Positions 886-64,000 are shown, numbered from the stretch's first letter. The stretch is 64,000 nt of DNA from Oscillospiraceae bacterium (GCA_009780275.1 WRAI01000004.1:21212-85211), one strand, 5' to 3'. Notes: generated by a model from the letters alone, not told the origin. Numbers and translations are program-made.

Positions 886-2253
<1,368 letters not shown>

Positions 2254-3720
2254 TTGATAATGCAGAATGTAAAATGCAGGATGGCAGCGATTGTTTTTGC
2301 TGCTCTGCTGTTGCTCGGGGCTTGCACTCCATCAAACAGCAATAATAACCGTAGAGACCATGAATTTGTTGATGGCGCGGCGTTTCGCGTGTTGTTGCAG
2401 GAGGCGGGGCTGCCGGTGGAGCATTTAGATGTCGAAGACATACAAATCGTTCGTGCTGATGTACTGTTTGGCTATGCCAATGATTTATTCGACATTCACG
2501 CCATTACCGATGCCTGGGGCGGCAGGCATGTGGGATACACATTTGGTTGGTTTGCGGAAAATAATGATAACCTTAACAACGATGCATCTATTACTCGTGC
2601 GCAGGCGACCCATTTTGTCAACGGTGTGCGTGAGGTTAAAGATAGGCGTGCCAGCAGCTTGACGGCGTTTTACGCCATTGCGTCATTTGACCAAATTCAT
2701 ATGATTGACGCGCTTGACGTCGTCAGCATGGGTTGGAGCCGTTTTGATATTATTGACGGTGAGGCGGTGTTTAACCTCAGTGTACAAAATGACAATGAAT
2801 ACAGCATTCCGTTAGGTTACGCCTTGCCAATGGAGCGCGCACGAGCAAACAATGTGCCTGTTTATCTGATGGTGGCAGGCAATATGGCGCATCACGGCGG
2901 CATGACGACAGCGGCGTACATTGTGCGTGACCCTACCATGCGAGAGTCGGCGCTGAACGACTTAGTCGATGCGGCGGAAAATGGCGTTATTTCACCTGTC
3001 AGCGGACAACGGATTTTCTTTGACGGCATTACGATGGACTTTGAGGAAATGCGTGGTGCCGAGACACGTGAAGCGTACTCGCAGTTTATTATTGATTTGC
3101 GTACGCGACTGCCCGAGGGATTTGGGCTATTGATTTGTGTGCATCCGGCCGTGGGGCGGGGAATGCCATTCTTTGATGCCTTTGATTTTCGTGTGTTGGG
3201 CGAGCATAGCGACGGCTTGATTGTTATGGCACATGACTATTACGCTAAATCGCTGTCGGAAGAAGAGCTTCTCTTGGGCGAAGTGGCTACGCGTACGCCG
3301 CCCTCGCCGATTGCCGATGTTTATTACGCCATCTATGCCGCGACGCACTCCGAGACGGGGACTGACCCGGCCAATGTATGGCTGGCGATGTCATTTACCG
3401 GCGTGCAGTGGCAAATGCGGGACGGCGTGGTGCAGAATCGCATTCCGTTGCGTCCGACCAACGACGCCATTGAACGGCGACTGCCGCATGCCACAGTGAC
3501 TCATGGTGCGTCGGGAAACCCTCGCGCAGTGTGGACTTATAATGACTTAGAAAACGTGATGTTTTTTGAAGATGCCGTGTCGACCATGCAACGGCAGCGG
3601 CTGGCCGATATGTTCGGGTTGGCGGGGCTTTCGTTGTGGCGGTTGGGCAATGTGCCGGACGGGAGTGCCGATGTGGATATGGACGCTTGGGATAGGTTGT
3701 TGGCACATAGGGATAGATAG
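2254..3720 (+). CDS. GH18-like glycosyl hydrolase lipoprotein (YaaH/chitinase-like fold)
   Basis: Lipoprotein signal AAIVFAALLLLGAC. GH18-type motif FDGITMDFEEM (DxxDxDxE variant). Track start is the TTG at 2254; the ATG at 2281 (MAAIVF..) is the more likely start. Confidence 0.7.
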   Translation: MIMQNVKCRMAAIVFAALLLLGACTPSNSNNNRRDHEFVDGAAFRVLLQEAGLPVEHLDVEDIQIVRADVLFGYANDLFDIHAITDAWGGRHVGYTFGWFAENNDNLNNDASITRAQATHFVNGVREVKDRRASSLTAFYAIASFDQIHMIDALDVVSMGWSRFDIIDGEAVFNLSVQNDNEYSIPLGYALPMERARANNVPVYLMVAGNMAHHGGMTTAAYIVRDPTMRESALNDLVDAAENGVISPVSGQRIFFDGITMDFEEMRGAETREAYSQFIIDLRTRLPEGFGLLICVHPAVGRGMPFFDAFDFRVLGEHSDGLIVMAHDYYAKSLSEEELLLGEVATRTPPSPIADVYYAIYAATHSETGTDPANVWLAMSFTGVQWQMRDGVVQNRIPLRPTNDAIERRLPHATVTHGASGNPRAVWTYNDLENVMFFEDAVSTMQRQRLADMFGLAGLSLWRLGNVPDGSADVDMDAWDRLLAHRDR

Positions 3721-3721
3721 T

Positions 3722-3753
3722 AAAAAAAACGGGGTATATGCCCCGTTTTTTTT
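3722..3753. terminator. bidirectional rho-independent terminator
   Basis: AAAAAAAACGGGG-tatatg-CCCCGTTTTTTTT between convergent genes. Confidence 0.85.
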
Positions 3754-3763
3754 ATGTGTGAAA

Positions 3764-3907
3764 TTAGCGGCGGAGCTCGTTGGGCGGGTCGTGTTCGCGT
3801 ATGCGTTGGAGTTCGTTGGTTTTGTCGTTAGGAGCAGTAATGGTGAGTGTTGAGCCGCTGATCGTAAAGTAAACAAATGATCCGGGTGCCTGGTCAAATC
3901 CTGACAT
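3764..3907 (-). CDS. small ORF (47 aa), possibly the 3' half of a frameshifted small secreted protein
   Basis: ATG 3907-3905, TAA 3766-3764: MSGFDQAPGSFVYFTISGSTLTITAPNDKTNELQRIREHDPPNELRR. Below the ORF-track cutoff. Starts 2 nt after the stop of ORF 3909..4133 in a different frame. Confidence 0.3.
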   Translation of the reverse strand: MSGFDQAPGSFVYFTISGSTLTITAPNDKTNELQRIREHDPPNELRR

Positions 3908-57922: not shown

Positions 57923-58246
57923 ATGGACAATCAAAAACTAGAACAAGTCACCCGTTTGAAAGCATTGGCTGATCCCAATCGTTTGCAAATTCTCCGTGTG
58001 TTGGCGCGCAATGAAAACTGTGACTGCGATGAAAATTGTGCTTGTCACTTATTGGAGAATGCTAATGTGTCGCAGCCTACGCTATCGCATCATATGAAAA
58101 TTTTGTGTGATTGCGGCATTGTGCTGGGGTGCAAAGCGGGGAAGTGGATGCACTACCGGCTCAATCGTGACGTCATCAATGAACTGACGGCGTTCTTGGA
58201 TGGATTGTGGAATACAAACGAAGGCTGTTTATGCAAAAGGAGGTGA
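57923..58246 (+). CDS. ArsR/SmtB family metal-sensing transcriptional repressor
   Basis: 107 aa. ..LKALADPNRLQILRVL.. and recognition helix ..VSQPTLSHHMKIL.. Cys-rich: CDCDENCAC, CDC, C, CLC. Confidence 0.9.
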   Translation: MDNQKLEQVTRLKALADPNRLQILRVLARNENCDCDENCACHLLENANVSQPTLSHHMKILCDCGIVLGCKAGKWMHYRLNRDVINELTAFLDGLWNTNEGCLCKRR

Positions 58247-58251
58247 ATGTC

Positions 58252-58341
58252 ATGCTGAAAGAGAATAAATGTGATTGCCCGTGCGGTTGCGGTGAAGTTT
58301 GCAGATGCACACCTAACTGCGGTTGTGGTTGCAAGGGTTAA
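58252..58341 (+). CDS. unannotated 29-aa cysteine-rich peptide (metallothionein-like)
   Basis: AGGAGGTG (58238-58245), 6 nt, ATG 58252. Encodes MLKENKCDCPCGCGEVCRCTPNCGCGCKG, ends TAA 58339-58341, and is followed immediately by a strong terminator. Confidence 0.55.
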   Translation: MLKENKCDCPCGCGEVCRCTPNCGCGCKG

Positions 58342-58379: not shown

Positions 58380-58526
58380 ATCTTGTAGTTTATGAAAAGC
58401 AAAGCACTACATATCGTTTGAGCTAAAATACCGGTTGACGGAAATAGATAAGTATGATATTTTGAGGTATACCATTCTTTACTTATGTCATCCGGCGCGA
58501 AGCAAAAACAGAAGGGAGGGGAGAGA

Positions 58527-59408
58527 ATGGCAAGTCATTTTCGTCCGCCAAAGCCTCCGCCAAAAGGCCCATTAAAACCGACTGTTGCGCCTGGCGGCAG
58601 TATGCCTCCTGTCATGGCGCCGTTAGATGAAAGAACCTCTCATGACACTATTGATGATAAAAAGACGCTTGAAATGCTACCGGACACGCCTTTGCCATGC
58701 CCGCCGGAACCTGAAATAGCACATGCAAAAACCTCAGAGCAAGAAGAGCTGTCCTCCCTCTATGTTGCCATTGACTATCAAATGCTGAATGGTCGCATTA
58801 AAGGTGGTTTGATACAGATATTCCGGCGCTTTCTTTTTAAATCACGCATTTCCGGCATTCTTTTCTATGCGGTTTTGGCTCTTTTTCTTGTTGTTGTGGG
58901 CATTTTCAGCGGCGTTGGCGATGATTCCCCACGTTATTTCTTTGGGTTTTCTGCGTTGAGAGTCATCAGCGATAGTATGGACAGCGAAATTCCGATGAAC
59001 TCATTGATTATTATCCGCAGTGTTGACCCAGATGCAGTCCGCGTTGGCGATGATATTACATTTACCGATAGCCGCAACCGCACGATTACACATAGGGTCA
59101 TTGAAATTATCGAGGATTACGAGGGAATAGGAGAACGAGGCTTTCAAACGCAAGGTGTTGATAATATTCGCCCGGACAGAGAGATTGTCGTACCTGATAC
59201 CATTGCAGGGCGCGTGGTGTTTCACAATTTATTCCTTGGCAGGTTGTCAAGATTTATTTCTCAAAACGCGTTCCTCGTCAGTGTGTTCAGTATACTGTTT
59301 GTCGGGTTAATTGTGGCATTGAAGGTCTTTCTGTTGCCCGGCAGAGGGAAATTGCCGCAAACGCCTGGGCTTAATCTAAGCAATTCGTTTGCAAGCAAGG
59401 TCGAGTAG
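58527..59408 (+). CDS. SipW-type (S26B) signal peptidase I with a Pro-rich N-terminal extension
   Basis: Catalytic Ser in ISDSMDSEIP and His in ITHRVIEI; single TM. About 130 N-terminal residues are rich in P/K/E. ATG 58527 preceded by GGGAGGGGAG. Confidence 0.85.
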   Translation: MASHFRPPKPPPKGPLKPTVAPGGSMPPVMAPLDERTSHDTIDDKKTLEMLPDTPLPCPPEPEIAHAKTSEQEELSSLYVAIDYQMLNGRIKGGLIQIFRRFLFKSRISGILFYAVLALFLVVVGIFSGVGDDSPRYFFGFSALRVISDSMDSEIPMNSLIIIRSVDPDAVRVGDDITFTDSRNRTITHRVIEIIEDYEGIGERGFQTQGVDNIRPDREIVVPDTIAGRVVFHNLFLGRLSRFISQNAFLVSVFSILFVGLIVALKVFLLPGRGKLPQTPGLNLSNSFASKVE

Positions 59409-59455: not shown

Positions 59456-60223
59456 TCATATTTTTCGCGCGACAACAACCAACCTATAATCTGGTCGTGA
59501 GTTGATACAGGTTGAAAGTGTAATCAGTTTATCGCCATAGACCGCAGTAAGGCCTGTGTCATACAGGGAAAGCTCGATACAGCGGCGCAGAAAGTCGTCA
59601 AATTCAGCTTCGTCTGCGGCATTGACAAATTGGTGATATGGAAATTGAGTCGGGTTAGCGATAAAGATAAGGATGATTTCATACATGCCGAACCCGGCGC
59701 GTGTGTCGAAAGTAATCAGTGAATGCTCAGCAAAAAAGGATTGTTGTCTGTAATTCAGCAATTGGCCAAACATGCGGTCATTGCCCATGTTGTGCGCGAA
59801 AATGGTAATGTTGTCGCTGTGTGGATCGATGGAGGCGTGTTCGAAGATATAAGGTGTGCCGAATCGACAATCTTCACCCTCGAAATTGCGTCGCAAATAG
59901 AAATTCGGGCGATCAGGCGTGTGCATAACGGGATAGTTTATGTTTGTGCCGTCAATGGTAATCCACCCTATCATATCAGGGTTTTGCGTGAATAGCATGC
60001 CGTATTGGTCATATGTTGTCCATACGGGCGGTGGCGTGTCATTAGGCACTTGCGGCGGCAGCGATGGCGGTCGTTCGATTTGTGATGCCAGCGCGTTAAA
60101 TTGTGCGCGGACATCGCGCTGCTCGGAAAAGTAGCGCCAAAGTTGCACGCCTGAAACGACGAAGACGCCAGCCAGCAGAATGATGATAATTGTCCAAATA
60201 TATGAGCGCCGTCGGCGTGCCAT
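59456..60223 (-). CDS. srtB: class B sortase
   Basis: N-terminal anchor, ..GWITIDGTNINYPVM.., His in IFAHN, catalytic Cys in LITLSTC, Arg in YRLVVVARK. ATG 60223 preceded by GGAGGT at 7 nt. Confidence 0.88.
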   Translation of the reverse strand: MARRRRSYIWTIIIILLAGVFVVSGVQLWRYFSEQRDVRAQFNALASQIERPPSLPPQVPNDTPPPVWTTYDQYGMLFTQNPDMIGWITIDGTNINYPVMHTPDRPNFYLRRNFEGEDCRFGTPYIFEHASIDPHSDNITIFAHNMGNDRMFGQLLNYRQQSFFAEHSLITFDTRAGFGMYEIILIFIANPTQFPYHQFVNAADEAEFDDFLRRCIELSLYDTGLTAVYGDKLITLSTCINSRPDYRLVVVARKI

Positions 60224-60313
60224 TGCAGCTACCTCCATGGAATAAGTTGATACTTTTATTATACGGCATTATCACCAGAAAGGCAATAGTGGCGCAAATG
60301 TATGCTTTTTTGC

Positions 60314-61768
60314 TCAAAGCACGATTAAGTCCATGCCGGCTAATGCCGTCAACAGCACTTCTTGGCGATATTTTGAAATAATTTCTGACCGAGCTGCGCC
60401 GTCGAACGCAATGCTGATCATCTTGCCTGCACCGCTATGGCCGTATTGCCATTCCTCAATGCAGAAAGAGGCATTGCTCTCGGCGAGAAAAGCAAAAATC
60501 TCGGCATAGCCGTTGCCCGTGCCGTTGGTGCTATTGCCGTGCTGGCCCAGCTTTGCCAAGATATGGATGGGGAACTCGTGGGCATTGTCGATGATTTCAA
60601 ACCGAAATATGCCGCCTTTTTCAGAAAACGTGGCGACGATTTGTTTTGATGTTGCTTTGGTTTGGTCTAGTTCTTTAATAGCATTGCTGACTAAATTGTC
60701 GACAAGCGCGGTAAATTTCATTTTAGATGCCGCCAACGAGTGCCATGACGCTCGATTTTGAACAGCGAATAGAATATTTCTCTTGGCACAATCTCTTATC
60801 ATTTCTTCCAGCAAAGCTTGCAAGGGATACCACTCATCAGGCAGGGAGATCGCGTCTTTTGTATCGTCTATTGCGAGCTCTTGGCTCGTTTCATCGGCGA
60901 ACTGACGAATGGCGTCTAAGCGTTTTTCAATCACCCCGAGACGAAAGACTTTGTCTGACGAACGGTCGTTGCTTGTGCTGGCTTTTAAGTCGTCTAATTC
61001 TTCCAATAGGGCTTGATGGGAAATGCCGACAGCTGAAATAATGCCTCGATATTTGTGTTGCTCACTGGTCAGGTCGCCAAGCTGTCCATTTAGATTTTGA
61101 GCTTGGCGCTCTAAATCTTTGAACTGTGCGTCAAACGATATGCGTTCACGATGTTTTTTGATTAAATAAATAATCAAAATGGTTAAGGCAAGGATGACAA
61201 GACCGAGCGCAATCGCTGACGTGTAAAACAAAAGATGGTCTGCTTCATGTGCATAAGGTCCTGCGATAAGGTATCCGCCCCAAAATGTTACAATAATTCC
61301 GGCAAATGCAAAAACAATGCCCTTGAACTCCTTGTCGTGTATTGCCGGAATGCCATTTCTTAATTTAATAATTTTATATATGGCAGAATAAATTAATGTT
61401 TCGACACATATCACTAAAACAAAGAACGCGTCGGTATCGTAAAATTGAAAAATAGAGCCTAGTGCGGCGGATACGAACGCCGATGCCATCCATGCGCAGT
61501 GTCCAAACAAAAAAGCCAATATCAGTGCTGCCCAGTTTATGGAATGTTGTGTTATTCGAAAAAATAAGCCAAGACTGGCAACTCCTGCGACTGTCCTAAA
61601 TGGTTCGCCGACATATCCCAGTGATAAAAACATGATAACGGCAAAAAGAAAAGATGCCATCAAAATAGGGGTGGTCTTATTTGAGTGGGCATGAATGATT
61701 TTCTGATAAAATAATAAGATAATGATGCCGAGTAGTAGATTGCTCATGAATGTATGAACAAATAACAT
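60314..61768 (-). CDS. AgrC-like (HPK10-type, GHKL) membrane sensor histidine kinase
   Basis: About 6 N-terminal TM segments and a coiled linker. H-box-like EQHKYRGII, N-box LVDNLVSNAIKE, G-box STNGTGNGYAEI. Confidence 0.75.
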   Translation of the reverse strand: MLFVHTFMSNLLLGIIILLFYQKIIHAHSNKTTPILMASFLFAVIMFLSLGYVGEPFRTVAGVASLGLFFRITQHSINWAALILAFLFGHCAWMASAFVSAALGSIFQFYDTDAFFVLVICVETLIYSAIYKIIKLRNGIPAIHDKEFKGIVFAFAGIIVTFWGGYLIAGPYAHEADHLLFYTSAIALGLVILALTILIIYLIKKHRERISFDAQFKDLERQAQNLNGQLGDLTSEQHKYRGIISAVGISHQALLEELDDLKASTSNDRSSDKVFRLGVIEKRLDAIRQFADETSQELAIDDTKDAISLPDEWYPLQALLEEMIRDCAKRNILFAVQNRASWHSLAASKMKFTALVDNLVSNAIKELDQTKATSKQIVATFSEKGGIFRFEIIDNAHEFPIHILAKLGQHGNSTNGTGNGYAEIFAFLAESNASFCIEEWQYGHSGAGKMISIAFDGAARSEIISKYRQEVLLTALAGMDLIVL

Positions 61769-62055: not shown

Positions 62056-62089
62056 AAGAAAAAAGACACACATTTCAATGTGTGTCTTT
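62056..62089 (-). terminator. rho-independent terminator of the Spo0A-like regulator gene
   Basis: Minus-strand AAAAGACACACAT-tgaa-ATGTGTGTCTTTT followed by TTTCTTTC. Confidence 0.85.
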
Positions 62090-62105
62090 TGGTGTGATTA
62101 TGTTA

Positions 62106-62915
62106 TCAGAAAATCTTTTCTTTACGGATTTTATCGGCGGTGTAAAGGATGAATTCCTTACTGGTGGGAACACCCCGGCCAATATCAATATAAGGAGTGT
62201 AGACTTTGCTTAAATCCTCGGTGTCAGTTTTTTCAAAAGCGTTATACAACAAACGTCGAATGGCTTTTTCTACTGCCTGTGGCTGCTTGCAAAATTTAGC
62301 GGAGATAAGGACAATGATTTTGTTTATTTTGACAAGGTTCGATTTTGGGTATTGCAAGACGCGGTAAATGGCTTCTTCCAGATATTCTCTGGCGGGGTTG
62401 CCATGTGATATGTAATAACGGCTTAGTTCGCTGTCGATTCTGGCGCGAATAAGTGCTTCCGTTTCCAGTTCGCTGTACTTTTGTTGCGTGTACGGTTCTT
62501 TATTGCGATGGAAAAAGTTAGACATCAAGCGTAAGTGTTCCAACACGGCGTCGGGGCTGTATGAGTGATTGTGTTTTTTGATGATAAAATCGGCGAGTTC
62601 ATCCTTTGCCTTGGCGAGCGCCATGCTTTTGTCGCCAAAGTCTGTTACAACCAACAGATAAGGCTTGATTGCCAAATCACACTCCGTCTGGCGAATTTTG
62701 TTAAGCAGGCTCAGTCCATCGCCATCGGAAAGTTCTAAGTCAACAATCACTGCGTCGGGCAAACCGGTTTGAACAAGCTTGTATGCCTCATCGGCGCCGG
62801 TCGTTATCGATAATACAGAAAAATCATCGCTGCGGCTGATACACAATTGCAAGGGGCCGGAATAATTCACGTCATCCTCCACGATGAGAACCTTGTATCG
62901 CTTGTCATATCTCAT
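62106..62915 (-). CDS. response regulator with a Spo0A_C-like DNA-binding domain (Spo0A paralogue-like)
   Basis: Receiver: LIVEDD, phospho-Asp in VIVDLEL, LVVTDF, IIKK. The C-terminus ..[45 protein letters not shown] aligns by eye with Spo0A ..[43 protein letters not shown]. ATG 62915 preceded by GGAGGTG. Confidence 0.8.
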   Translation of the reverse strand: [269 protein letters not shown]

Positions 62916-62935
62916 GTCCACACCTCCGATAGTGC

Positions 62936-62964
62936 ATTCTATCATAGATAGATGCAATTTTCAA
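62936..62964 (-). promoter_or_regulatory. extended -10 sigma-A promoter of the Spo0A-like regulator
   Basis: Minus-strand TTGAAA (62964-62959), 17 nt, TGaTAGAAT (-10 hexamer at 62941-62936). Confidence 0.6.
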
Positions 62965-62967
62965 CCG

Positions 62968-62994
62968 TTGTCCAAAAAAGTACAATTTCGACAA
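62968..62994. promoter_or_regulatory. inverted repeat TTGTCCAA-N11-TTCGACAA containing a perfect 0A-box heptamer
   Basis: TTCGACA (62987-62993) is the reverse complement of TGTCGAA. TGTCCAA (62969-62975) differs from it at one position. The repeat sits between the two divergent -35 elements. Confidence 0.5.
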
Positions 62995-63016
62995 AATCAA
63001 AGAAATATGGTATACT
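62988..63016 (+). promoter_or_regulatory. extended -10 sigma-A promoter of the AbrB-fold gene
   Basis: TCGACA (62988-62993), 17 nt, TGgTATACT (63008-63016). Confidence 0.6.
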
Positions 63017-63029
63017 ATACAAAAAGGGG

Positions 63030-63617
63030 ATGACAGGCATGGATGTTATATTGACGACGAGTGTTTTTGAGCGCGAAGGATTTCTAACGATCCCGAAATC
63101 TATCAGCAAGGTATGGGAAATAAAATGTGGAGACCATCTGTATGCCAAGTTAAAAGATGGGAATGTCACCTTGCAAAGGGAAAATGGGAAAAACCTAGAA
63201 ACTGTGGCGGTTTTGCCAGGCTTCGATGTGCAAATTCCTGAGCATTTTGCTGACAGATTGGGTTTTCCGGTCTGCGGTGAAGTGCAGCTGAAATTAGAGA
63301 ATGATGTTCTGACTATTTATAAAACAAATGTCATCAGCATCTTTTCGCCGCAAGGAAACAGGGAAAGGTTGCGGCGAAAATTGGATGCCGAATTCGAAAT
63401 GCTATTCCAAAAAAGCAGAAGTGAGTTGCTTGAAGATATTTATACTTTGTTGCTTTTAACAGAGTTAAAAGACGAGACGGTAAAGGGACTGCTGGCATTA
63501 CCAAATGCATTGCAGCACATGCGACAGCGGATACGTGGGGACGATGAGTTTGAGGCATTTTTAGAAAAAAAAGTAAAAGAATTGACAGATGAACTGACAG
63601 ATGAATTCAGGCAATGA
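63030..63617 (+). CDS. protein with two tandem SpoVT/AbrB-like modules plus a helical C-terminal domain
   Basis: FLTIPKSISKVWEIKCGDHLYAKLKDGNVTLQRE and FDVQIPEHFADRLGFPVCGEVQLKLENDVLTIYK both fit the AbrB swapped-hairpin pattern (x-IP-x..G[DE]-x-hydrophobic alternation). Start is ATG 63030 or 63039. Confidence 0.6.
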   Translation: MTGMDVILTTSVFEREGFLTIPKSISKVWEIKCGDHLYAKLKDGNVTLQRENGKNLETVAVLPGFDVQIPEHFADRLGFPVCGEVQLKLENDVLTIYKTNVISIFSPQGNRERLRRKLDAEFEMLFQKSRSELLEDIYTLLLLTELKDETVKGLLALPNALQHMRQRIRGDDEFEAFLEKKVKELTDELTDEFRQ

Positions 63618-63735
63618 TAAAAAAGACAAAATTGTACAAAAATATACAGCTGGAAATGGTAGTAAAAGCAGGAAATTTCTTATATAATTATCTCACGAAG
63701 CAAATAATGTGGGGTGTGTAATTTTGTGTGAACAA

Positions 63736-64000
63736 ATGGTGTTGCGGGATTTGGAAAATGAGAATTTGACAGCCATCAATGAAATGCTATGGGGCCTGGT
63801 GCACACGCATCATCGTTATTTTAATGAACTTGCAAGTTTGGCAGATGACAGCGATAATGTGAATGTTATCGCAAATTTGCTTCGAAATATTGGGCGGGAT
63901 GGAGCAAAGCGTAGCTTGACTGTGTCCGTGAGAAATGAAAGTGTTGATATTGCTTTGCGCCGGCATATGTTGGCGGCTGTAGCGCATCACGCTGTTATTC
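63736..64000 (+). CDS. hypothetical protein, N-terminal fragment (ORF open at right window edge)
   Basis: ATG 63736 (in-frame TTG at 63724) opens MVLRDLENENLTAINEMLWGLVHTHHRYFNELASLADD.. with no stop to nt 64000. It is missing from the ORF track because it is unterminated. Confidence 0.4.
   Translation, partial: MVLRDLENENLTAINEMLWGLVHTHHRYFNELASLADDSDNVNVIANLLRNIGRDGAKRSLTVSVRNESVDIALRRHMLAAVAHHAVI

Follow-up and report, generated by a model that had tools for sequence, protein, structure and literature searches.

A candidate response-regulator operator between divergent promoters in an uncultured Oscillospiraceae genome

We analyzed a 64-kb stretch of DNA from the genome of an uncultured Oscillospiraceae bacterium (GCA_009780275.1 WRAI01000004.1:21212-85211; hereafter the window, to which all window counts refer), in which a gene for a Spo0A-like response regulator and a gene for a 192-amino acid protein with an AbrB-type fold, here termed the partner, are transcribed divergently from a short intergenic gap. 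Between the -35 hexamers of the two promoters lies a conserved candidate operator of about 27 bp, which would comprise three boxes, TTGTCCA, AAGTACA and a reversed TTGTCGA, phased at 10 bp; the outer two boxes correspond to the imperfect inverted repeat reported in an earlier note on this DNA. The adjacent regulator, once phosphorylated at D59 by a kinase-like protein encoded downstream, appears to be the most likely binder; through its Spo0A_C domain it would recognize a relaxed half-site of the 0A type, TTGT-N-N-AA. We regard an operator for the regulator itself as an evenly balanced proposition, in which we infer the identity of the binder, the sign of regulation and the dependence on phosphorylation. 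Direct observations are the promoters, the box conservation, the assigned domains and folds, and the enrichment of 0A-like boxes at related loci.

Results

Two divergent extended -10 promoters

All of the motifs named in the earlier note were found where it had placed them. The intergenic gap is 123 nt long, and not 114 nt as first given, because the plus-strand gene most likely starts at the ATG at 63039 rather than at 63030. This start is backed by an alignment of orthologues from that Met and by a correctly spaced ribosome-binding site, AAAGGGGA.

We scanned both strands of the window for pairs of -35 and -10 hexamers separated by 16-18 nt that had TG at -15/-14 and at least 10 of 12 hexamer matches. 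Only 8 sites were found, of which 2 lie inside the 123-nt gap. On the minus strand, the regulator promoter has the -35 hexamer TTGAAA (62959-62964, read 62964-62959) and the extended -10 element TGaTAGAAT (62936-62944; TAGAAT at 62941-62936, TG at 62944-62943). On the plus strand, the partner promoter has the -35 hexamer TCGACA (62988-62993) and the extended -10 element TGgTATACT (63008-63016; TATACT at 63011-63016, TG at 63008-63009). Each promoter scores 10/12 plus TG, combines a near-consensus extended -10 element with a non-consensus -35, and lies about 15 nt ahead of its own gene's ribosome-binding site, which for the regulator is GGAGGTG (62921-62927, minus strand). The hexamers are 17 nt apart in both; the earlier notation TTGAAA-17-TGaTAGAAT thus named a genuine promoter but was loose, the 17 nt being the hexamer-to-hexamer distance with TGa included. 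Such sites are rare in the window, and both -10 elements rank with the best conserved blocks of four orthologous regions (see below); we therefore regard two divergent promoters of the sigma-A extended -10 type as well supported and not a chance occurrence. Transcription is predicted to start at about 62930 on the minus strand and about 63023 on the plus strand.

Inspection of the orthologous sequences by eye places TTGTAA (L003) and TTGCAA (L004) at the same spacing as the regulator -35. The layout of this promoter, TTGAAa followed by 17 nt ending in ATGA and by TAnnnT, recurs through the wider family when the printed upstream regions are read by eye; the sole formal result on that layout is the presence of AAATATG, the reverse complement of the regulator extended -10 region, in 9 of 17 family upstream regions. 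A sigma-H reading of the regulator promoter was discarded: its -10 fits RnnGAAT, but no AGGA-type -35 was seen by eye.

Boxes between the promoters

The left box, TTGTCCAA (62968-62975), lies 3 nt upstream of the regulator -35, and its TTGT..AA positions are invariant in four orthologues. The middle box, AAGTACA (62978-62984), has an invariant G at 62980 and is replaced by TCGTAC in L004 and CTGTAT in L006. The right box, TTCGACAA (62987-62994), contains the plus-strand -35 TCGACA and, as the earlier note had observed, TTCGACA (62987-62993), the exact reverse complement of the Spo0A box (0A box) TGTCGAA. The outer boxes are inverted relative to each other, with centers about 18-19 bp apart, and the left and middle boxes form a direct repeat with a 10-bp period. 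Relative to the predicted starts of the regulator and partner promoters, respectively, the box centers would lie at about -41.5 and -51.5 (left), -51 and -42 (middle), and -60.5 and -32.5 (right).

An exact 0A box arises within the gap in 1.4% of shuffles. The number of 0A boxes in the window as a whole (13 against 8.2 expected) is not significant. The composite pattern TTGTNNAA-N11-TTNNACAA, for which the earlier note had proposed a search, has a single occurrence in the window, at the divergent gap; it is thus unique to this site here, but 23 of 100 shuffles also yield at least one match. The word TTGTMCAA occurs at 13 sites in the window against 5.2 expected, a count that is not informative, with most sites lying outside the locus by coordinates and palindromic hits counted twice.

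Two other roles for the repeat region were considered and rejected. No stable hairpin was predicted for the repeat (-2.3 kcal/mol, z = -0.46) and no Rfam family matched the repeat region at its gathering threshold, which together rule out a hairpin, terminator or RNA element. Likewise, the left half is not the -35 of a second leftward promoter, since no acceptable -10 lies at 16-18 nt; judged by eye, the left box has no acceptable -10 16-18 nt downstream on either strand, and so is not a promoter hexamer.

Conservation among orthologous gaps

Four orthologous intergenic regions could be aligned: those of the window, L003, L004 and L006 (a further locus, L002, does not differ from the window). 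In blocks of 8 nt, conservation among the four is highest at the regulator ribosome-binding site, the regulator -10, the left box, the right box and the partner -10, and the conservation score of the left box, 0.85, equals that of the ribosome-binding site. Three G residues, at 62970, 62980 and 62990, are invariant at exact 10-bp steps. The outer boxes are separated by N11 in the window, L003 and L004 and by N12 in L006, while the intervening sequence changes. In all four orthologues the right half forms a -35 hexamer, T[C/A]GACA, followed after 17 nt by a -10, and this -35 is never the consensus TTGACA. The presence of a conserved element between the two promoters, its left box just upstream of the regulator -35 and its right box on the partner -35, is thus supported.

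The exact 0A box did not hold up as the conserved unit. It is present in the window and L003, where the left boxes are TGTCCAA and TGTCTAA, respectively, whereas in L004 and L006 each outer box reads TGTCTAA or TGTACAA. The half-sites observed are therefore TGTCGAA, TGTCCAA, TGTCTAA and TGTACAA, with the consensus TTGT-N-N-AA; positions T1-G2-T3 and A6-A7 are conserved, and C4 and G5 vary. Authentic Spo0A reads G2, C4 and G5 of the TGTCGAA core, and a single change at C4 or G5 costs its DNA-binding domain about 10-fold in affinity (PMC3485338).

These substitutions bear on a further explanation, that the exact 0A box is a site for the authentic Spo0A of the host, which would tie the module to the sporulation or transition-state regulon. 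The exact TGTCGAA at 62987-62993, together with exact boxes at L003, L009 and L019, speaks for this, as does the position of a family member divergently beside a near-authentic spo0A gene in L013 and L015. However, conservation at the locus follows T1-G2-T3 and A6-A7 rather than C4-G5, the forms found in L004 and L006 carry the changes that are costly for Spo0A, and no spo0A gene lies within the window. We consider control by authentic Spo0A very doubtful. Variation at C4 and G5 would fit a paralogue with an altered recognition helix.

Enrichment of 0A boxes in the wider family

We next extended the comparison to 10 loci at which the regulator and AbrB-fold genes are divergent neighbors, using 1000 shuffles. 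Exact TGTCGAA was found in 4 of the 10 loci (0.11 expected) and a box with at most one mismatch in 10 of 10 (2.9 expected), numbers reached in 0 of 1000 shuffles in either case, although the test counts related loci as independent and therefore overstates their independence. The loci with exact boxes are the window, L003, L009 and L019. In the last two, the box falls within the spacer of the promoter, 8 nt ahead of the -10 and in the orientation opposite to that of the window's box; because of this location it is not a -35 hexamer.

The family is small and rare. A collection of 5.8 billion clusters yielded about 20 regulator proteins, as well as 2 relatives of the partner by single-sequence search and 6 by profile search; another collection, of 1.84 billion, contained 64 representatives of the partner. 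Searches of reference genomes returned no close relatives, only receiver-domain matches, and no family member was found in viral contigs. In L004 (3136-4986), a phage-like lysis cassette (DUF2001, Amidase_2/SH3_3 and an r1t-type holin) lies a few kb from the closest regulator homologue from another sample (67% identity).

Points against an operator for the regulator

Several of these observations, with some others, weigh against an operator read by the regulator. By itself the inverted repeat (TTGTCCAA, 11 nt, TTCGACAA; arms agreeing at 7 of 8 positions) is not significant: a comparable repeat, with 8-nt arms, at least 7/8 matches and a 5-20 nt loop, occurs in 37% of dinucleotide shuffles of the gap. 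The weight of the operator idea thus comes from the orthologue comparison and not from the single sequence. That comparison covers four regions that amount to about 2 or 3 independent lineages, and the conservation of the right box needs no operator, because its hexamer is a -35 in all four. The enrichment test treats related loci as independent, some one-mismatch hits overlap -35-like TTGAAA words (L166), and distant family members have no inverted repeat and show variable recognition helices. Inverted boxes with centers about 18-19 bp apart are not known as a Spo0A dimer geometry. Finally, MraZ-type proteins also bind phased GT-containing boxes, with six-nucleotide spacers (PMC12957436).

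Some of these points would be accounted for if the symmetry were a by-product of promoter architecture, with the right half serving as a -35, the left half and the A/T tracts being UP-element-like or otherwise constrained, and no regulator binding the dyad. The frequency of equal repeats in shuffles and the invariable arrangement of T[C/A]GACA, 17 nt and a -10 are as this explanation would have them, and the left half, when reverse-complemented to TGGACA or TAGACA, is also -35-like, with A/T tracts between the boxes. It does not readily account for a left box that is conserved like a ribosome-binding site with no -10 at 16-18 nt on either strand, for the TTGTAC word that tops conservation in a second intergenic region (see below), for the strong enrichment of exact TGTCGAA at family loci, including positions away from hexamers, or for a -35 that is never TTGACA in the four orthologues. 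On balance we consider promoter architecture alone an unlikely explanation.

The regulator and its kinase-like neighbor

The regulator gene (62106-62915, minus strand) encodes 269 amino acids with REC and Spo0A_C domains (Pfam Response_reg PF00072, 1.6e-12; Spo0A_C PF08769, 2.9e-12). The earlier description of the protein as Spo0A-like was borne out: it matches TIGR02875 over its full length (residues 7-266), but with 76.7 bits against the Spo0A equivalog cutoff of 200, and is therefore a paralogue and not Spo0A itself. In 19 homologues, the REC residues E13, D14, D59, T91 and K114 never vary. In an alignment to the Spo0A DNA-binding-domain structures 1LQ1 and 1FC3, the recognition helix of the regulator reads QAVEKAIRR where that of Spo0A reads SRVERAIRH, and the near-invariant Spo0A helix signature SRVERAIRHAIEVAW is replaced by QAVEKAIRRLLYNAF. 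The helix is retained in the closest relatives (QAV[E/D]KAIRR) and is variable in distant ones. It keeps E, K (for R) and R at what we take to be positions 213, 214 and 217 of Bacillus subtilis Spo0A. Covariation between the helix and the boxes was considered, L004 and L006 having an E to D change along with TGTCTAA and TGTACAA, and was set aside because the lineages are too few to count. The C-terminal domain is basic, with an isoelectric point (pI) of 9.28.

In L013, a near-authentic spo0A gene (2069-2824, minus strand) lies divergently beside a regulator homologue (3001-3807, plus strand), and the layout in L015 is similar. Against TIGR02875, the spo0A-like neighbor in L013 reaches 179.9 bits, and its helix is ARIERAIRHAIEISW. 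The layout in these two loci suggests that the regulator family arose by local duplication of spo0A.

A strong terminator-like hairpin of 13 pairs with a T-rich tail (62061-62090, minus strand) lies 16 nt after the regulator stop codon, and a 337-nt gap precedes the kinase-like gene. Given the hairpin and the gap, the regulator may be largely monocistronic. By eye, 0A-like words occur in the gap between the two genes at about the number expected by chance.

The downstream gene (60314-61768, minus strand) encodes a kinase-like protein of 484 amino acids, a putative cognate sensor kinase. Its match to the GHKL ATPase domain HATPase_c (24.8 bits) falls just below the cutoff of 26.4, an orthologue in L166 also matches HATPase_c_5, and no HisKA-type domain was detected in the protein. 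We judged its membrane topology by inspecting the sequence. A similar gene lies behind the regulator in L166 and L167, and we take the 484-amino acid protein to be the probable cognate kinase of the regulator.

Just past the kinase-like gene, a SipW/archaeal-type signal peptidase I gene (58485-59408, plus strand; TIGR02228, 77.7 bits) and a sortase gene (59456-60238, minus strand) face each other in convergent orientation. The two are possible targets of the system, for example in the processing of surface proteins or fibers. Farther on, at 57923-58341, an ArsR-type helix-turn-helix gene (57923-58246) overlaps a 44-amino acid, cysteine-rich open reading frame of metallothionein-like appearance, containing CDCPCGCGEVCRCTPNCGCGCKG.

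The AbrB-fold partner

The partner (63039-63617, plus strand) is predicted to consist of a single-chain double barrel of the AbrB/SpoVT type (about residues 1-95) and an acidic, helical C-terminal half. The window's own protein matches PF04014 with E = 0.18 (12.2 bits; cutoff 24.7), and PF04014 is detected at E values up to 10 in 6 of 7 family members, with a best value of 1.8e-9; one member, P0023, carries a precomputed PF04014 assignment. A single-sequence structure prediction of the partner was unusable (mean predicted local distance difference test score, pLDDT, of 50.5). An AlphaFold2 model built from a shallow, 6-sequence alignment is of moderate confidence, with block-mean pLDDT values of 67-88, mostly 78-88, over residues 1-100, and it shows two tandem beta-beta-alpha-beta-beta units. 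Foldseek places MraZ (9qlg, 1n0e and 9sz7) and PhS018 (2glw) at the top of its matches (E = 3e-5 to 1e-3), and weak profile matches link the partner to the AbrB N-domain structures 2k1n and 1z0r (E about 0.5). The family-level PF04014 matches and the Foldseek results agree with the AbrB-type fold first proposed for this protein.

The accompanying idea of an AbrB equivalent fares less well. The partner has a pI of 5.16 (4.7-5.6 among full-length family members), and its barrel domain is acidic or neutral (pI 4.9-5.9) in 5 of 7 members, with no invariant basic residue in the barrel. The residues that we take to correspond to AbrB R15 and R23, by alignment to AbrB, are not Arg. The acidic double barrel is made of one chain and bears a helical tail, and arginines for contact with DNA are not conserved in it; the partner thus has an AbrB fold but is unlikely to be an AbrB equivalent, and it may not bind DNA.

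AbrB and MazE-type proteins commonly autoregulate. The 192-amino acid protein might be the one that binds the boxes, controlling both its own gene and that of the regulator. Its closest structural matches, MraZ and PhS018, point in this direction, as do GT(A/C)C-like boxes with a 10-bp period at both sites. The acidity of the protein, the lack of an invariant basic residue in its barrel, the replaced arginines and the PF04014 match short of significance in the window's own protein all argue otherwise, and the enrichment of the 0A box, a known target of Spo0A_C, would have to be coincidental. Binding by the partner is therefore, in our judgment, improbable.

A second site and a third gene

A second conserved element, TTGTACAAAAATATACA, lies at about 63632-63648 on the plus strand, after the partner stop codon and upstream of a third gene. 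It has the form of tandem boxes, TTGTAC-N4-nnTAC, a direct repeat of the TTGTAC word with a 10-bp period, built on the same word as the left box. It is the best conserved block of its intergenic region: the counterpart in L003, TTGTACAAAAATGTACA, is almost identical to that of the window, and the one in L006, TTGTACGGAATTGTACG, is recognizable. With one mismatch allowed, 3 of the 4 matches to TTGTAC-N6-GTAC in the window fall inside the locus. The arrangement suggests that the functional unit may be a set of phased, largely direct boxes, of which the earlier dyad is only the outer pair.

The third gene encodes a protein of about 155 amino acids. It begins on the plus strand at a TTG at 63724 or an ATG at 63736, leaves the window at 64000 and continues in L001 (2558-3025). 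The protein has no significant Pfam match and shows a recurring (E/N)EM(L/F)W motif near its N-terminus. Homologues follow the AbrB-fold gene in L006, L009, L019 and L020, and in L010 a gene similar to the third gene is directly divergent from the regulator.

Loci L009 and L019, which belong to a more distant subgroup, have a conserved block of their own, GAAAACC(G/C)TCACCGAAAAT, about 5-30 nt after the stop codon of the AbrB-fold gene. CGAAAA words in this block echo the TGTCGAAA box of the divergent promoters of the same loci. The sequences of the first and second sites may co-vary between subgroups.

Discussion

How the operator might work

No domain other than Spo0A_C is known to recognize boxes of the TGTCGAA type. 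The regulator is favored as binder for this reason and because its helix retains E, K and R, its C-terminal domain is basic, the boxes vary where the helix has changed, and the partner is acidic. Under this proposal, the regulator would control its own gene through the left box beside its -35, at about -41.5, a position compatible with activation. The partner gene would be co-regulated through the right box, which forms its -35, either by occlusion or by class-II-type activation, and the tandem site at about 63632-63648 would probably tie the third gene to the regulator.

In the Spo0A-DNA complex (1LQ1), the protein binds head-to-tail on tandem boxes with a 10-bp period. The weakest part of the earlier note was its single dimer bound to an inverted repeat and switching both genes: the pattern looks more like three boxes phased at 10 bp, and the second site is a tandem direct repeat. 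Its repression geometry at the partner promoter stands only in part, for the overlap of the right half with the -35 is real but is no proof of repression, and an activator site is equally possible; Spo0A activates spoIIG from boxes overlapping the -35. Positive autoregulation combined with occlusion of the partner promoter would be one possible outcome.

A more elaborate proposal is that the locus is a self-contained duplicate of Spo0A logic, in which a Spo0A-derived regulator with its own membrane kinase would read a relaxed, 10-bp-phased box, TTGTNNAA, while the partner, an acidic, MraZ-like double AbrB protein that does not bind DNA, would modulate the regulator by acting, for instance, as a DNA mimic or an anti-regulator, alongside the third, conserved protein. 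Such an undescribed switch of a bistable or developmental type, rare in public data, is in our view an improbable interpretation.

The customary view of Spo0A is of an orphan master regulator, present in single copy, that has one well-defined box. The locus described here reveals a small, rare Spo0A-derived family with a kinase-like neighbor, a changed recognition helix and a degenerate, 0A-like candidate operator common to the AbrB-fold gene. If the regulator binds this operator, the family would offer a natural experiment in the evolution of Spo0A_C specificity at box positions 4 and 5, and the locus a compact three-promoter circuit for autoregulation. A bare match to TGTCGAA should not be taken as a sign of Spo0A control.

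Comparison with known systems

Counts of spo0A paralogues exist for some genomes of the Clostridiales (bioRxiv 10.1101/2022.02.25.481979), and truncated phage copies of spo0A are known (PMC10294663). Our search of the literature found no description of a kinase-linked, AbrB-fold-linked subfamily of Spo0A paralogues or of its operator.

One close parallel is Spo0A and its 0A boxes at spo0A and abrB in B. subtilis and Clostridioides difficile, which share with this locus the REC and Spo0A_C domains, a related recognition helix and an exact TGTCGAA. In C. difficile spo0A, as here, boxes lie upstream of the regulator's own promoter (PMC3485338). In contrast, the regulator of this locus is far under the equivalog cutoff, its helix has changed from SRVERAIRHAIEVAW to QAVEKAIRRLLYNAF, the half-site is TTGTNNAA with C4 and G5 not conserved, and the outer boxes are inverted rather than tandem and head-to-tail. 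Spo0A is an orphan regulator, whereas a kinase-like gene adjoins the regulator here, and the 0A boxes of abrB lie downstream of the transcription start and not on the -35.

In its predicted fold, roughly the N-terminal half of the partner resembles MraZ and PhS018, the single-chain double AbrB barrels already known, as two tandem beta-beta-alpha-beta-beta units with these proteins as top Foldseek matches, and MraZ binds boxes with a 10-bp period (PMC12957436). The partner differs from MraZ in having no significant sequence match (Pfam, NCBIfam), an additional acidic, helical C-terminal half and no conserved basic DNA-contact residues. It lies outside a dcw cluster, its neighbors being a response regulator and a kinase-like gene rather than mraW and fts genes. 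An AbrB/MazE/SpoVT domain is detectable at the family level, but in AbrB itself, a basic protein whose arginines contact DNA, two chains make up the barrel. The partner, a single-chain, acidic double barrel that has a long helical tail, is not orthologous to AbrB.

A general class of two-component systems autoregulates through an operator located between divergent promoters, an example being the pho boxes of PhoB that replace a -35. These systems share with this locus boxes that abut or replace -35 elements, tandem boxes phased at about one helical turn, and near-consensus extended -10 elements paired with non-consensus -35 elements. They differ in that the DNA-binding domain here is of the Spo0A_C type and not a winged helix. 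Set beside such systems, the locus is a credible candidate for an operator between divergent promoters through which a response regulator would control its own gene.

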